Shown here: in pieces, positions 42,633 to 64,000 of the stretch
Layout of the letters: every line of letters begins with the position of its first letter
Position numbering within the stretch: position 1 is the stretch's first letter
DNA from: an uncultured Nitrososphaerales archaeon
GTDB taxonomy: Archaea > Thermoproteota > Nitrososphaeria > Nitrososphaerales > Nitrososphaeraceae
Direction of reading: 5' to 3'
Assembly (NCBI GenBank): GCA_963695855.1
Contig: CAVOHZ010000010.1
Span: forward strand, 224,001 to 288,000
Length of the DNA stretch: 64,000 nucleotides
The notes under the pieces: model-generated
What the model was told of the DNA's origin: nothing
The model's database searches: none
Seen by the model: the letters and a program-made list of their open reading frames with translations, nothing else
Translations under genes and position numbers: made by a program

Positions 42633-43171
42633 TATGAAGGGTAATGATTTAAAAGAAGAGTATCTTTTACTTTTTATATTTATAACTGCTTTTGTTATCA
42701 TGTTATTGAACATAATAATTAGACAGACAATGATAAAATAATAATATATTTGTTTGATATTGTTAATAAATCTGATAATAAATAGGCTATGTCAATTCCT
42801 CGATTGATATTTAATTAAGAATGATAAGATTGGTTGTTTGTATGACACAAGGAATAGAAGATTCAAAACAAGACTATCAGTAAGAAAGAATTTCTATATG
42901 TGAGATAGATTATTTGATATGTTTCTAATTGACGCTGTATATATCTCTTCCTTTCATTAACTGTCTTTATAGAATTAATAATAAGATTTTCTCTTTTAAT
43001 ATAGTAAAAAGAATTTCTACAATTTATCAATTAGCAAATTTCTTGATAGTCGATCTTGAAAAAGATATTAGCGTTCTACTAGATGCGATAATGGAAGGAC
43101 GGGCTCTGTAGGTGAAATGTTCGACAGAGCTAACATTCAAGAAGAAAGCCACTACCAATACTCTTGCAAAT

Positions 43172-44200
43172 ATGTATGCGGCATTAGATTTAGGACAGAA
43201 AAACATTCAGGCAGTATTGAAAAATAAAGATGGTAAGATTATAAAGGAAAATAAAATACAGCGTAATACCAAAACAATACTAGAATTTCTTGATAATAGT
43301 AACAAGAATCATAATAATATTGATATTGTAATGGAGTCTGGTTACAACTATCAATATCTATATGATCTTTTACAAGATGAAGGTTATAATGTAAAAGTAG
43401 CACATCCACTAATGGTCAAGGCAATAGCATATGCTAAAGTCAAGACAGATAAAGTAGATGCTAGAATATTAGCAGATCTACTAAGAATGGATATGATACC
43501 AGAATGTTATATACCTAATAAAGATATAAGAAATTTACGAGATCTAGTTAGACGCAGATACTATTTTGTCAGTATTCGAACAATGTTCAAAAACAAAGCA
43601 CATGTTGAGATGAGTAAAAGATGGTTAGATGCTAATGTGACTAATAATATAACAACAACAATGATTAAAAATGATCCATTTTCTAAAAAAGGAAAATGTC
43701 ATTTACGTTCACTGGGAATACATGCATTAGATGATTGCCTTGATACCATAGATTTTCTAGATAGAAAAATAAAAGAGTTGGATACAGAAATAAAGAAATT
43801 GGCAATAGAAGATAAATACTCTAAACATCTTATGACAATTCCAGGTATATCTTACTATGCAGCTCTTCTAATATCAAGCGAGATAGCAGATATTAACAGG
43901 TTTCCAGACTATGAACATCTGTGTTCTTATGCTAGATTAGTACCTGGTACATATCAATCTGGAAATACATCATTCTCAAAAACAGACAAAAAACAAGGGA
44001 GCAAAATGCTAAACTGGATTATGGTACAGTGTACTCATACACATGTACGTTATTGCCAATCATCGATAACAGTACATTACAACAAGATAAAGAATAGAAA
44101 GAGAAATAACAAAATTGCTATAATTGCAGCAGCAAGAAAATTAATGCGTGTGATATATGTTATGCTAAAGGAAGATCGTCCCTTTAGACTGGATGAATAA
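43172..44200 (+). CDS. IS110-family DEDD recombinase
   Basis: LDLG, MESG, KTDKVDA, TIPGI, YQSG, AAARKL; likely start at MYAALD. Confidence 0.95.
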   Translation: MYAALDLGQKNIQAVLKNKDGKIIKENKIQRNTKTILEFLDNSNKNHNNIDIVMESGYNYQYLYDLLQDEGYNVKVAHPLMVKAIAYAKVKTDKVDARILADLLRMDMIPECYIPNKDIRNLRDLVRRRYYFVSIRTMFKNKAHVEMSKRWLDANVTNNITTTMIKNDPFSKKGKCHLRSLGIHALDDCLDTIDFLDRKIKELDTEIKKLAIEDKYSKHLMTIPGISYYAALLISSEIADINRFPDYEHLCSYARLVPGTYQSGNTSFSKTDKKQGSKMLNWIMVQCTHTHVRYCQSSITVHYNKIKNRKRNNKIAIIAAARKLMRVIYVMLKEDRPFRLDE

Positions 44201-44210
44201 TAATATAGTA

Positions 44211-44350
44211 TAGGACCTCTTGGTTTCTTGCATCGTCATATTGTTATTATTATATGATAAGTATGATGGATGCCATCTGTAGGTTAGGTCTGGCTACTAC
44301 TAGCGCAAAGCCACGGTGCACTATTGGTGCGTATGGGAGAATGCTATTAT
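44211..44350 (+). ncRNA. Predicted bridge/seek RNA
   Basis: Stem gacct/aggtc encloses guides tggtttct and tctgtag around an inner hairpin; the second stem-loop carries atgggag matching the element end. Boundaries approximate. Confidence 0.78.
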
Positions 44351-44432
44351 TCATCAGTTAATCATATTAGGAACGAGTATTATATGAACATGGGAGAAAC
44401 CATCATAGCTAGCAACATTCTACCATTAATTA

Positions 44433-45344
44433 TTGAACAAACAACAATCAAAATATGTTAGATTAGCAGATCAACTATTACGTATTCTCAAACATTGCAG
44501 AATTCCATTATATTTGCATAGAAAGAGCAACCACATTTACACAGTATGGCAACACATAGTACTTGTTACAATAAGAAGACAGTATGAAGGTAAGAGTTAT
44601 CGAATGTTTACAGACTGGCTTGTTGAAGCATACTATTTGAGATTGTTTTTACAACTATCCAAAATACCACATTATACAACATTACAGAAATTCACAGATA
44701 GAATCAATGTAGTGATGCTTGGAAAGATAATCTCATCTTTTATCTTATTCACAAGAACAAGACGCATATTTACTGGCATAGATTTGACTGGATTCAAAAT
44801 AACACATGCATCAGAGTACTATACTAGCAGAGCAAAACTACGAAGGAAGAAATATGCTAAATTGTCAATTGGCGCAGATGTATTACAACAAATCGTCTGT
44901 TCTATAAAGATAAGGCGAGCTCCAACAAGACATGATAACATAGATTTTAGACCAGTGACAACAAGAATATCAAAAATAAAACCATTATCGGTAGTTGTTG
45001 CAGATAAAGCATATGATAGTGAGGATAATCATGTACTAGTTAGAGAGAAACTAAACGGATTCAGTGTTATACCATCAAGATATGAAAAAGATGTACCAAT
45101 ATGGAAAACTCGTGGCAAATACAGAAAAGAAATGAAACGTGGCTATTCAAAGATTCTGTACAATCAACGTAACAAAGATGAAACTATTGTATTAGTCATA
45201 AAAAGATTGTTTGGAGAACATATATCATCCAGATTAATACGAATGCAGAACAGAGAATTGACTTTCAGATGTATTACATACAATCTTCATAGGATGCTAA
45301 ATTTAATTATTATTAAATGGATTCTACAGAGCCGAAGGACGTAG
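44433..45344 (+). CDS. IS5-family transposase
   Basis: IDLTGF, ADKAYDSE, YNQRNKDET motifs. Confidence 0.9.
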   Translation: MNKQQSKYVRLADQLLRILKHCRIPLYLHRKSNHIYTVWQHIVLVTIRRQYEGKSYRMFTDWLVEAYYLRLFLQLSKIPHYTTLQKFTDRINVVMLGKIISSFILFTRTRRIFTGIDLTGFKITHASEYYTSRAKLRRKKYAKLSIGADVLQQIVCSIKIRRAPTRHDNIDFRPVTTRISKIKPLSVVVADKAYDSEDNHVLVREKLNGFSVIPSRYEKDVPIWKTRGKYRKEMKRGYSKILYNQRNKDETIVLVIKRLFGEHISSRLIRMQNRELTFRCITYNLHRMLNLIIIKWILQSRRT

Positions 45345-46348
45345 AACCTTAAATACGATGAAGTATGTTTTCATGGCAACAAGTGCTAATTTCGGAAATA
45401 TGTTTAGTATGGCTGGTGTATCGTTATTTCTGACATTCCTTCCCCTTTTGCCAAAACAGATACTTCTTACCAACTTGATGACAGACTTTCCAGAAATGAC
45501 AATATCAACAGATAATGTAGATAAAGAAATATTAGAAGTTCCCAGGCATTGGGATCTTAAATTTATTCGTAAATTCATGCTTGTATTTGGTTTTTTAAGT
45601 ACTATTTTTGATTTTCTGACCTTTATTGTACTACTAAATATTTTACACGCAAACATAGAACAATTTAGAACGACATGGTTTATGGAATCAGTTATTTCGG
45701 CTTCACTCGTAGTTTTAATTATCAGAAGTAAAAAACCATTAATGAAAAGTACTCCTGGAAAATTTTTGTTAATTACAACTTTAATAGTTAATATTTTTGT
45801 ACTTGCTATTCCTCTTACTCCTATTGGCCCAATATTTGGATTTGTTGTTATCCCGTTAACATTCTATCTTAGTATAGGAATAATTGTGCTAACGTATGTA
45901 GTTATGGCTGAAGTAATAAAGTGGATCTTTTATAGATTGGTAAAAATGTAATATTAAATCTCTTTTTTGAAACGTCTATAGCGTTTAAATCTGCATGTAG
46001 ATTAATGGTATTTGTTATAGCGGGCAACAATATTAAAAAAGTCATTAATAGCATCAAAACCAAGCAATAGTTCTACTCTCTTAAGTAGTGAATAATTATA
46101 TTTCTTCTAACCTCCTGCATAATATTCCCACAATAGGTTATCCACTTGAGCTATGGTAGTAATTAGTGCAAGACAGGAATAGATAAAAAAAGTATTACAA
46201 TCAAAACTTACGATAAACATATTAATTTATAAAAATTGTCATCAGTTGTTATTTTTCCATAATGATAACCAGTTAAATAATTAATAAGCTTATTAAAAAT
46301 CGAAACTTTATAGATATGCTTAAATCCTAGATCCTGTGAGCAACTGGT

Positions 46349-63364: not shown

Positions 63365-64000
63365 ACATGTAAAAGTCTTTTCCTGTTATCTATTCTCTTA
63401 TCCAACTGGCTAACCCCTTGTTGTGCGTGACCTGTCTTACTAGGATAAGGTCTTGCTTGTTGAATGGGGATATGTGTAAGCTGCTGTATATGTGAGCCAT
63501 AAAGAGCTCTGATAGATGTTTGCAGCTTTGTCTGGCTAGTTGGTTGGTTGGTTGGTATACTGATACTAGTATCATAATAAAAAAAAGGAGGTGAAAAAGA
63601 GAATAGAAGAAAAAATAATAGAATCAAGAAAAGATGATAGTTACTATATTGCGGTAGACATTGGAAAGAAAAACTGTGTTGTATGTATAACAGATAAGGA
63701 TGGTTCCATAATAGAAGAAACAAAATATGATAATACTCTACAAGAAGCAGAAAGATTTGCTTCTCATTTGGATAAAAAGTATAGCAACAGAAAATGTCAT
63801 GCTGTTTGTGAATCAACAGCGAATATGTGGTTAAAGACATACGAAGCATTTGAGAAATATGGTATAGATGTTAAACTGGCTAATCCTCTGAAGACCAAGG
63901 CAATAGCAGAAGCAAGGATAAAAACAGATAAACTAGATGCTAGAATATTAGCACATTTACTACGATCTAATTTGATTGCAGAATCATATATTGCTCCAGA
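63365..64000 (+). mobile_element. IS110-family element with 5' non-coding end; recombinase from GTG 63591 runs off the window
   Basis: IAVDIGK, VCEST, ANP, KTDKLDARILA; GGAG directly before the start. Confidence 0.9.
63402..63543 (+). ncRNA. Predicted bridge RNA
   Basis: Outer stem ccaactggct/ggctagttgg; two arms (cccc/gggg and aagctgc/gcagctt), each with an internal loop; guide cttgttgaat equals the left flank 63355-63364. Confidence 0.75.

Follow-up and report, generated by a model that had tools for sequence, protein, structure and literature searches.

We analysed a 64,000-nucleotide stretch of DNA from an uncultured Nitrososphaerales archaeon (the window) and found one insertion sequence (IS) lodged in the end of another, unrelated one. 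An element of the IS110 family splits the left terminal inverted repeat (TIR) of a host IS of the IS5 family, which is itself framed by a target-site duplication. The features of this nested pair are as follows.

43094–43101, + strand: left target-site duplication of the host IS, gaaggacg, the same 8 bp as at 45334–45341
43102–43111, + strand: outermost 10 bp of the left TIR of the host IS, GGCTCTGTAG, with left half-site TCTGT and core AG (43110–43111)
43112–44396, + strand: IS110-family element with IS1111 layout, 1285 bp, delimited by genome BLASTN and the junctions shared by its copies
43117–43122, + strand: left sub-terminal inverted repeat ATGTTC, partner of GAACAT at 44386–44391
43144–43152, + strand: left-end box GAAAGCCAC, within the 5' leader and ~20 nt before the start codon
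43172–44200, + strand: recombinase gene, ATG at 43172, 342 aa, coding for DEDD RuvC-like and Tnp domains, the latter with the SG serine
44386–44396, + strand: right sub-terminal repeat GAACAT, followed by the 3-bp extension GGG and the AG core
44397–45333, + strand: remainder of the host IS5-family element, comprising the inner left TIR AAACCAT with half-site AAACCA, an open reading frame (ORF) and the right TIR
45334–45341, + strand: right target-site duplication of the host IS, gaaggacg

The left junction of the IS110 element reads ggctctgtag/gtgaaatg, with 43112 as the first base, and the right junction reads catgggag/aaaccatc, with 44396 as the last. Because the AG core stands at both junctions, bounds of 43110–44394 are equivalent. 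The core is single in empty sites and present at both junctions of filled ones, there is no longer target-site duplication, and every copy of the element lies in one orientation. Its non-coding ends differ in length, with 60 nt upstream of the gene (43112–43171) versus 196 nt downstream (44201–44396). On the left, the terminal extension (AG)GTGAA precedes ATGTTC and spans 7 bp with the core counted on that side. The sub-terminal repeat is perfect over its 6 bp; relatives keep an imperfect ATGnTCG/CGACAT, and their right ends are CGACATGGGAG. An initial annotation of the window, made from sequence alone, had called the element IS1111-type, and the long downstream non-coding region, the order of the guides described below and the 7-bp and 3-bp extensions all fit, with a repeat of only 6 bp.

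Profile searches support placing 43112–44396 in the IS110 family of DEDD/Ser recombinases. The protein matches PF01548 (85.3 bits, 4.9e-24, cut-off 29), PF02371 (66.5 bits, 2.8e-18, cut-off 21.3) and the NCBIfam model NF033542, 'IS110 family RNA-guided transposase' (218.3 bits, cut-off 140). Aligned with 20 relatives, residues D6, E55, D93, P258, Q262 and S263 are invariant, and D96 and G264 nearly so. The recombinase also remotely matches the solved IS621 and ISCro4 recombinases (E ~4e-13), with its KTDKVDAR and QSG aligning to KTDTVDAR and ESG of IS621. The archaeal small-subunit rRNA (SSU) model finds a full-length match in the genome, and all 24 related loci from species genomes lie in Nitrososphaerota-lineage or unclassified archaeal metagenome-assembled genomes, in keeping with the annotation of the recombinase as archaeal.

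The host element is an IS5-family IS by its DDE transposase, its TIRs and its target-site duplication. Its transposase ORF begins at 44433, stops just past the end of the IS, and matches PF01609 and NF033579 (transpos_IS5_2, 146.7 bits, cut-off 140). The TIRs are 17 bp long, the right one at 45317–45333. BLASTN recovered seven copies of this IS in the genome, at 74–100% identity. Uninterrupted copies carry the unbroken left TIR GGCTCTGTAGAAACCATCATAGC, and three other copies read by eye have direct repeats of their own of 8, 8 and 7–8 bp. As had been proposed, deleting 43112–44396 rebuilds such a TIR: the joined sequence, GGCTCTGTAGAAACCAT, matches the reverse complement of 45317–45333, GGCTCTGTAGAATCCAT, at 16/17 positions.

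A conserved 3' RNA and its putative guide strands

Downstream of the recombinase gene, we identified two modules of a putative seek/bridge RNA, followed by an A/T-rich box near the right tip.

44213–44291, + strand: target-binding module of the putative RNA, with an outer stem (GGACCU/AGGUCU) and an inner hairpin (GCAUC...GAUGC at 44230–44273) separated by an internal loop
44221–44228, + strand: putative right-target guide UGGUUUCU, complementary to top strand AG+AAACCA
44276–44284, + strand: putative left-target guide UCUGU-AG, then GU, same as the top strand
44292–44344, + strand: second module, with hairpin A GGCU...AGCC at 44292–44312, linker ACGGU, hairpin B GCAC...GUGC at 44318–44330 and a single-stranded stretch
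44333–44341, + strand: putative donor (right-end) guide AUGGG-AG, then AA, identical to the right end at 44390–44396
44360–44371, + strand: A/T-rich box AATCATATTAGG, a possible archaeal TATA box lying 25–36 nt inside the right tip

The stem proposed at the outset is present in the sequence, with gacct at 44214–44218 and aggtc at 44286–44290. We built a covariance model, R1, from seven relatives with this element left out, and it recovered the 3' end of the element full length at 44208–44408 (55.2 bits, E 6.7e-12). Genome-wide, R1 found only three full copies of the element and a 5'-truncated copy on contig C3. The target-binding module aligns to the model over its full length, and both of its stems show compensatory changes. 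Protein searches returned at least 833 relatives at E<=1e-20, and 73 RNAs were found. Across the 73 R1 matches (70 distinct rows), 93.3% of stem cells are paired versus 86.6% after shuffling (0/500), although in this test and in the guide tests below kinship alone may let related rows exceed shuffles. Changes on both sides occur in 12 of the 17 stem pairs, and slid controls pair at 15–50%.

Folding energies were less telling. An 83-nt module (44211–44293) folds with the proposed outer stem at z = -2.66, with 2/200 shuffles as good, whereas the 202-nt 3' end taken as a whole shows no unusual stability (z = -0.23) and its minimum-energy fold lacks that stem. Support for the RNA structure therefore comes from comparative evidence and not from thermodynamics. 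An Rfam scan of 42900–45500 at E<=10 gave no match, and an exact 20-mer of the element's right end had none in metagenome contigs. Together, the model and the stems suggest that the 3' non-coding end encodes a conserved structured seek/bridge RNA, which by analogy with its family would be transcribed and processed.

The two strands of the first internal loop carry the words on which the first reading of this locus was built. The word tggtttct (44221–44228) is the reverse complement of AGAAACCA, and tctgtag lies at 44276–44282. The left-target guide has the sequence of the top strand, so its expected partner is the bottom strand. The GU that comes next, a candidate handshake dinucleotide, repeats the two bases with which the element's left end begins. 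Jointly the loop strands match the filled site as the 13-bp target TCTGT-AG-AAACCA, where all three full copies sit. Both guide words with a 30–60-nt spacer occur once in the window, against 0.01 expected (100 shuffles).

We then compared the loops with the flanks of each relative. The 5'-loop columns pair with the core and right flank at 81.8%, against 62.6 +/- 1.3% when shuffled (0/500), and their covariation score is 0.344 against 0.108 (0/500). Slid registers reached at most 58% pairing and a score of at most 0.203. Right-flank positions +1 to +4 pair with the guide in 60, 65, 63 and 59 of 68 rows, and a smaller set gave 68.2% versus 56.8% (0/500); the registers of both sets were fixed after inspection of the core columns. 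The 3' loop equals the left flank plus AG over at least six contiguous bases, core included, in 19 of 23 loci read by eye, matching left-flank words as varied as TCTGT, TCAGT, AATT, GGAAC, TTGAC, TTAAC, GGTTA, ATTAT and TTTACT. All relatives read keep one guide order, with the complement of the top strand 5' of the top-strand match. Some loci fit less well. L052 and L054 share the RNA of L042 and match their flanks by eye over 3–4 bases on the right and 4–6 on the left, and L047 and L049 have a poor left-flank match to the guide. In a MAFFT-based alignment, guide–flank covariation was no better than in the +1-slid register. The alignment had misplaced this element and three other rows, which makes the result equivocal, and covariance-model alignments were used instead. 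The joint covariation of stems, and of loop strands with flanks across the clade, points to RNA guidance of the recombinase, as the initial annotation had supposed.

The second module appears to serve the donor side. Compensatory changes are found in 3/4 pairs of hairpin B and almost none in hairpin A. The single-stranded stretch after hairpin B holds the right-end guide, and the earlier observation that atgggag (44333–44339) repeats the element's last bases (44390–44396) extends to relatives: in L044, L049, L071, L072 and L133, AUAGGAG accompanies right ends of CTAGGAG/CATAGGAG. After the guide comes AA, the same dinucleotide with which the right flank opens. The second donor guide, unclear from the start, was still not found; a by-eye search for a left-end guide to AG+GTGAA..., in the element and in relatives with the left-end variants AA, AC, AT and GG, yielded CAC/GTG at most. 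The letters of the left-end box do recur in the RNA at 44307–44314 (AAAGCCAC), and the box is conserved as AAAGCCAC in 14/16 left ends and in the RNA alignments. The A/T-rich box aligns with a conserved AAAuaUAauAA of the model consensus and stands out in RNAs of 55–60% G+C. It is a candidate TATA box, and might act as an outward or junction promoter.

The TIR could instead be read by protein–DNA contacts alone, with the 3' structure acting as a terminator, a regulatory RNA or end-binding DNA. We consider this highly improbable. Relatives with close recombinases and nearly identical stems, such as L071 and L072 or L022 and L045, sit in different targets, and it is their two loop strands that vary; the pairing statistics of the 5' loop with the right flank and the experimental demonstration of RNA guidance in the IS110/IS1111 family (PMC11187229; PMC11208160) also count against contacts alone. 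Such contacts could be made at the sub-terminal repeats and at conserved ends (GTGnnATGnTCG and CGACATGGGAG), all of which resemble protein sites. They would also suit the missing left-end guide and the shortness of the guide words, whose reliable pairing covers only the core and four right-flank bases.

Insertion into IS5-family ends within and beyond the genome

The three full copies of the IS110 element in the genome are 100% identical across 1285 bp by BLASTN. All three are flanked by ggctctgtag on the left and aaaccatcatagc on the right, that is, 10 bp inside an IS5-family left TIR. The host IS copies that carry them are 100, 85.7 and 85.4% identical to the window's copy and also differ mutually, and the outer flanks differ among the three. 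Identical inserts in diverged hosts with different outer flanks are thus separate insertions and not copies of a composite. Elsewhere in the genome, the exact 13-mer target occurs in only two places, both of them left TIRs of unoccupied host copies; with the three filled sites, 3/5 exact sites are occupied. Of the seven host copies, the six closest have a right TIR that reads TCTGTAGAATCCA (three) or TGTGTAGAAACCA (three), one mismatch from the target, and neither genome BLASTN nor the RNA model search placed the element at any of these six. The genome also contains decayed fragments of related elements.

The initial annotation raised the question whether the flanks of all genomic copies are this TIR. 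They are for the three full copies and not for the truncated copy on C3, whose right flank is AAACC followed by unrelated DNA, with no detectable IS5 copy there. Specificity for the TIR position is therefore not absolute.

Similar insertions appeared in other samples. Metagenome contig L069, whose recombinase is 95% identical in amino acid sequence, has the same junctions with another flank and a diverged host IS. A ~95% variant with ggctctgtag and a further different outer flank was found on a contig from a soil RNA library. L070, at 70% amino acid identity, occupies the homologous TIR position of a diverged IS5 homologue (~75% alike by eye). There the TIR reads GGCTCAGTAG/AAACCAAC, the adjoining flank is CTCAGTAG, and the guide is UCAGUAG, not UCUGUAG, so that the T-to-A change of the TIR is mirrored in the guide.

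We weighed whether duplication or movement of an IS5 + IS110 composite, with incidental matches between the 3' end and the TIR, could have produced these junctions, and give that account very little credence. It would explain why all copies share a host IS family and an orientation, and a relative in genome G014 offers a possible precedent. A gap of 11 bp appears to separate that relative from the end of a degraded IS5-like element, whose matching inverted repeat was not found in G014. The left flank of the relative has two occurrences, each next to one of its two copies, which share > 300 bp of flank found nowhere else in that genome. TIR targeting by this relative is therefore unproven. Within the genome studied here, a travelling composite is at odds with perfectly identical inserts in hosts that have diverged to ~85% identity, and beyond it with the finding of the same junction in L069 and also in L070, where the guide has changed to compensate. 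Guide–flank covariation across 70 distinct RNAs tells against it as well.

A model for RNA-guided insertion and its significance

In our reading, the locus very probably holds an active or very recently active IS110 IS of IS1111 layout, RNA-guided to an IS5 TIR in a Nitrososphaerota archaeon. The 5' strand of the first-module loop, UGGUUUCU, would pair with the target top strand AG-AAACCA, and the 3' strand, UCUGUAG, with the bottom strand of TCTGT-AG. The two strands would jointly specify TCTGT-AG-AAACCA, the left TIR of the resident IS5-family IS, while AUGGGAG of the second module would read the element's own right end. The RNA-bound DEDD/Ser recombinase would then recombine the target with a circular right-end/AG/left-end junction, the strand exchange taking place at the AG core. 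This would leave the IS110 element inserted 10 bp into the IS5 end, with its orientation fixed. The split TIR may immobilise the host IS, as the initial annotation supposed. A circular intermediate and serine/RuvC chemistry are expected from the family; neither a circle junction nor an empty-site joint was seen in assembled contigs of public runs.

That silence, together with the decayed related fragments and the filling of only 3/5 exact target sites, is what one might expect of a dead relic with a recognisable structure that is no longer mobile, a view we find barely plausible given that three identical copies in diverged hosts keep the 342-aa frame open and the catalytic residues conserved, and that near-identical copies occur in other samples.

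A bolder extension of RNA-guided insertion is that the Nitrososphaerota clade is a long-standing hyperparasite of one IS5 lineage. We regard this as unlikely, and set out its three parts as possibilities. First, guides could track IS5-end changes over at least 30% recombinase divergence. Second, the RNA could read the right end only, with the left end carrying the RNA's 11-nt box GAAAGCCACAG in the mRNA leader, where it could be a decoy for autoregulation or a new form of left-end recognition. Third, the A/T box could fire as a TATA box across the circle junction and, once integrated, into the host IS5 transposase gene. If true, the guest would control the host IS rather than merely disable it.

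Judged by sequence comparison, this element of a soil archaeon appears to use a mechanism of a known kind in a lineage where it is new, the Nitrososphaerota, and shows clear natural re-programming. It would extend RNA-guided IS110/IS1111 recombination to a large archaeal clade. Full-text literature searches listed no description of a Nitrososphaerota IS110 element or of an IS110-type insertion into archaeal IS5 ends; the supplementary tables of bridge-RNA and seekRNA papers may list such cases. A series of guides re-programmed in nature, short, strongly covarying and built round an AG core, offers raw material for bridge-recombinase engineering. The locus is also a clean case in which one IS lands on the end of another and the guide appears to co-evolve with that end. 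Such co-evolution bears on how mobile elements limit or exploit one another in archaea of the ammonia-oxidising type.

Comparison with known systems

Among bacterial elements of the IS110/IS1111 type, IS4321 and IS5075 target the inverted repeats of Tn21. The element described here resembles these Tn3-TIR inserters in taking one fixed position and orientation inside the TIR of another mobile element. Their host is a Tn3-family transposon, whereas here the setting is archaeal and the host an IS5-family IS. As compared here, it also differs from them in an association that has lasted while the recombinase diverged by ~30%, the guide following changes in the TIR. Among the matches listed, the best plasmid-borne homologues are 35.0–36.8% identical and annotated only as 'IS110 family'.

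Other archaeal elements offer two further comparisons. Haloarchaeal elements of the ISHvo9 type, among the best matches listed in the plasmid collection, are also archaeal IS110 members and, compared by protein, form a distant lineage (33.9–35.9% identity over 85–87% of the query). For 'Hvo9', four locations gave no clear target consensus in the account of PMC11187229. Closer to hand is a sister subfamily in the same archaeal family (L023–L026, 37–42% identical), with a 3' RNA, two internal loops and an AC core; model R1 had no match to it. Its loop strands match its own flanks and its own right end in the same arrangement as in our element: the 5' strand complements the core and right flank, the 3' strand equals the left flank and core, and the donor 3' strand equals the right end. 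It differs in its AC core and in having two modules that are both simple loops closed by a GAGG...CCUC hairpin. None of the L023–L026 targets looked at was an IS end.

With IS621 and ISCro4, the element shares two domains, one DEDD RuvC-like and the other a Tnp domain containing the SG serine (Durrant et al. 2024, PMC11208160; Hiraizumi et al. 2026, PMC13626964). Its loop strands would read both target strands round a 2-nt core, as in their bridge RNA (PMC11208160). A separate segment likewise appears to read the element's own end, and the post-core dinucleotides match the partner DNA in a handshake-like manner. In contrast to IS621 and ISCro4, to which the similarity is remote, the element has its RNA 3' of the gene, a reversed guide order, an AG core and no visible left-end guide. 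Its donor part is a two-hairpin junction and not a simple internal loop, as in many IS1111 members (PMC11208160).

The closest correspondence is with ISEc11, ISKpn4, ISPst6 and ISPa11, whose seekRNAs were described by Siddiquee et al. 2024 (PMC11187229). IS1111 elements have the longer non-coding region downstream, extensions of 7 bp on the left and 3 bp on the right, and repeats usually of 11–13 bp (PMC11187229), elsewhere given as sub-terminal repeats of 7–17 bp (PMC11208160). Our element has the same downstream non-coding region and the same extensions. Its 342-aa transposase falls within the 330–350 aa of IS1111 and contains the xL-P----SG motif (PMC11187229). It departs from ISEc11-type elements (PMC11187229) in its 6-bp repeat, against the usual 11–13 bp, in its archaeal host and in an RNA that no Rfam model matches. 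As in seekRNAs, the top-strand complement lies 5' of the bottom-strand match, the two overlapping at the insertion point, and close relatives appear to have been naturally re-programmed here as they have among ISEc11-type elements (PMC11187229).

An IS110-family element inside the end of an IS5-family element

The initial annotation described an RNA-guided IS110/IS1111 recombinase with guides aimed at the terminal inverted repeat (TIR) of a resident IS, and the words and coordinates it gave were all correct against the sequence. Excising the inner element restores GGCTCTGTAGAAACCAT, a 16/17 match to the host IS right end.

Features of the locus (window positions)
43094-45341: host IS, IS5 family, including the 8-bp duplication gaaggacg on both flanks
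43112-44396: inner element, 1285 bp, 10 bp in from the left terminus of the host IS
60 nt: left end of the inner element
43172-44200: recombinase ORF, 342 aa
196 nt: 3' non-coding end of the inner element
43144-43152 and 44307-44316: copies of an 11-nt box, also present in the left ends and RNAs of related loci L022, L040-L060 and L070-L076

We set the recombinase start at ATG 43172, as in relatives; the longest listed ORF begins at the element's first base. The protein carries PF01548 and PF02371 and, with 218 bits, clears the 140-bit cut-off of NF033542 ('IS110 family RNA-guided transposase'). Its KTDxVDAR and SG motifs line up in a remote alignment to the solved IS621 and ISCro4 (E about 4e-13), and across 20 aligned relatives D6, E55, D93, P258, Q262 and S263 are invariant, with D96 and G264 nearly so. 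Judged by sequence, the downstream non-coding region, guide order, 7/3-bp extensions, 342-aa length and xL-P----SG motif fit the IS1111 group, for which the 6-bp sub-terminal repeat is short.

The host transposase matches PF01609 and NF033579 (146.7 bits, cut-off 140); its frame is intact, downstream of the guest and co-oriented with it. The host IS has split a P-type ATPase gene remnant (PF00689 match at 45358-45951), and by eye, deleting it with one repeat copy rejoins the frame AIMEGR-RTLNTMKYVF. That remnant (42929-43101 and 45342-45951) is of the MgtA-like cation type and comprises the C-terminal part only; the ORFs upstream of it encode small membrane proteins unrelated to it.

Insertion sites within and beyond the genome

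The genome (G000) spans 3.55 Mb in 11 contigs at about 31% G+C, with a full-length match to the archaeal SSU model (1490.8 bits). BLASTN recovered three copies of the element, 100% identical across 1285 bp, and in all three the junctions read ggctctgtag on the left and aaaccatcatagc on the right, with unrelated outer flanks. The host IS has seven copies (74-100% identity); those carrying the guests are 100, 85.7 and 85.4% identical to the window's host IS, and the two 85% copies differ from one another within their first 40 bp. Identical guests in diverged hosts indicate that the insertions were separate and recent. The exact 13-mer target, TCTGTAGAAACCA, occurs in only two further genomic places, both left ends of unoccupied host copies, so three of five exact sites are filled. 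Among host copies, the six closest each differ from the 13-mer by one mismatch at their right end, and a whole-genome search with BLASTN and R1, a covariance model of the 3' RNA, found no element at any of these six right ends. One-mismatch sites number 18 in the genome, versus 6 for a reversed control word.

The three full copies are all flanked by the TIR; a 5'-truncated one (L015, G000:C3:39413-39742) lies where no IS5 copy was detectable. This fragment is 94% identical, with its RNA intact and one right-end change; its right flank starts with AAACC and runs on into unrelated DNA, and it speaks against strict site specificity. A decayed relic (L149, G000:C2:54954-55285, about 80% identical) has a TIR-word-like left flank ending in TCTCAGTAG.

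The same target is occupied elsewhere. Metagenome contig L069 (95% amino acid identity) shares both junctions, with another outer flank and a host IS that has diverged. L070, from a G+C-richer organism (70% amino acid identity), is inserted between GGCTCAGTAG and AAACCAAC, and the DNA on its right shows homology to the coding region of the host IS. The 3' strand of its loop is CATCAGTAG, versus CATCTGTAG in the window's element; the guide has changed along with the TIR. Soil RNA-library contigs, which are evidence of presence and not of transcription, hold a roughly 95% variant including ggctctgtag with yet another outer flank, and one spans the right junction into the host IS.

A conserved 3' RNA whose loops track the flanks

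Database searches returned 833 recombinase relatives at E<=1e-20. Those named are IS110 family transposases of Nitrososphaerales/Nitrososphaerota archaea plus one Spirochaetia MAG, and all 24 species-genome loci recovered are titled Nitrososphaerota-lineage or unclassified archaeal MAGs. Within the window's taxonomic family, a cut-off of E<=1e-40 leaves matches in 13 of 101 genomes. The best plasmid-borne homologues, at most 36% identical, are Rhizobium elements and haloarchaeal ISHvo9-type elements.

The proposed structured RNA was borne out by R1, which was trained on seven relatives, this element excluded, and comprises four helices: two stems in module 1 (the target-binding part), one outer and one inner, plus hairpins A and B. 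R1 matched 44208-44408 at full length (55.2 bits, E 6.7e-12), found nothing else in the genome beyond the three copies and the C3 fragment, and gave 73 matches across 80 sources. The matches make up 70 distinct rows, in which pairing held for 93.3% of stem cells versus 86.6% when shuffled (0/500) and 15-50% in slid controls, and both sides changed in 12 of 17 stem pairs; covariation was almost nil in hairpin A. All of these values lean towards R1, the alignment having been fitted to it. The stability of the whole 3' end is ordinary (z = -0.23); the outer stem proposed in the annotation forms in the fold of the 83-nt first module (z = -2.66). An Rfam scan around the element matched no family. 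A conserved A/T-rich patch (44360-44371, R1 about 120-131), in RNAs that otherwise have 55-60% G+C, is set back 25-36 nt from the right tip, a position that would suit an archaeal TATA box driving transcription through the circle junction or into the host IS.

In the window, the two guide words stand 30-60 nt apart at a single place, versus 0.01 expected. Guide-flank pairs lie outside the R1 model. In the 73-match alignment, the 5' loop strand paired with the core AG plus right flank in 81.8% of cells versus 62.6 +/- 1.3 shuffled (0/500), with a covariation score of 0.344 versus 0.108 (0/500); slid registers reached at most 58% and 0.203. The register was chosen after locating the invariant core columns, and eight pairs carry the result, two of the ten named columns being insert columns. 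Right-flank pairing at +1 to +4 held in 60, 65, 63 and 59 of 68 rows, and at +5 and +6 in 40 and 39 of 66. A smaller 24-match set gave 68.2% versus 56.8% (0/500); the first test, on a MAFFT-based alignment, was equivocal.

The 3' loop strand is identical, not complementary, to the left flank plus AG and was accordingly scored by eye only: in 19 of 23 loci, six or more bases matched without a break, core included; L047, L049 and L052 were weak and L079 degenerate. Close pairs differ exactly in guides and flanks (TTGAC and AACC in L071 versus TTAAC and AGCCTA in L072; L022 and L045 likewise). L042, L052 and L054 have one RNA in common, with unequal flank matches. In module 2, the donor part, AUGGGAG equals the element's right end, as the annotation had read it; where relatives carry AUAGGAG instead, the right end is CTAGGAG or CATAGGAG.

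Taken together, the reading of an RNA-guided IS aimed at another IS's end is supported. The target loop would read TCTGT-AG-AAACCA on both strands and the donor segment the element's right end, with strand exchange at AG; transcription, RNA processing, a circular intermediate and the chemistry would follow the family (PMC11187229, PMC11208160).

Relatives and known systems

Two side features concern RNA organization. Of the two copies of the 11-nt box (consensus GAAAGCCACAG), one closely precedes the recombinase start codon, within the left-end leader, and the other lies between hairpins A and B of the RNA. They are identical, not complementary, and may be bound by one protein in both places (autoregulation) or serve an unusual mode of left-end recognition. 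In L052 (2485-2997, an uncultured archaeon MAG) the RNA module stands three times in tandem after one recombinase gene (R1 152-162 bits each), and L131 has two R1 matches. The tandem modules recall ISPpu9, whose downstream small-RNA module is reported to move separately (PMC12288879).

A sister subfamily, 37-45% identical (L023-L026 and L033, in G023, G055, G015, G020 and G014), has a 3' RNA built as two neat internal-loop modules with an AC core, its loop strands matching its own flanks and right end. R1 did not detect it; it has its own shared box, AAAG..ACGGTAG, one change in which is mirrored in L026. The window's final bases (63639-64000; gene G000:C10:287639-288637) hold the beginning of a further IS110-family gene, with 36% identity to the recombinase described here; an inverted twin follows about 1.4 kb on (G000:C10:290017-291015). 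A third element has two nearly identical copies (L006, L007; G000:C8:48610-49617 and C10:929531-930538), with non-coding regions of about 220 nt on each side of the gene and shared sequence starting GCTCTGACG. L022 and L039 (G014), 55-63% relatives with guides AAUUAG and UUGUUGUCU, sit 11 bp before the point at which two left contexts that otherwise agree diverge, and have a degraded IS5_2-like ORF fragment (E 2.6e-5) upstream; they may be a further, unproven case of IS-end targeting.

No left-end guide was found in the element's RNA. Donor nucleotides lie within a multiloop in many IS1111 RNAs (PMC11208160), and for ISEc11 an 82-nt RNA with target matches only is enough (PMC11187229), so on these accounts its absence does not set the element apart from its family. 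Each core copy is followed by two bases: GU in the target loop, the left end's first two, and AA in the donor segment, the right flank's first two; by eye, the first of the donor-segment pair agrees in 7 of 9 relatives. These dinucleotides resemble the 'handshake guides' described for IS621 (PMC13626964). One preprint (10.1101/2024.06.21.599552) puts the number of archaeal IS110 recombinases at 662 and infers that they entered archaea by several transfers, so on that count archaeal members as such are not new. The element adds a new archaeal representative to a known kind and is an unusually clear case of an IS targeting another IS's end.
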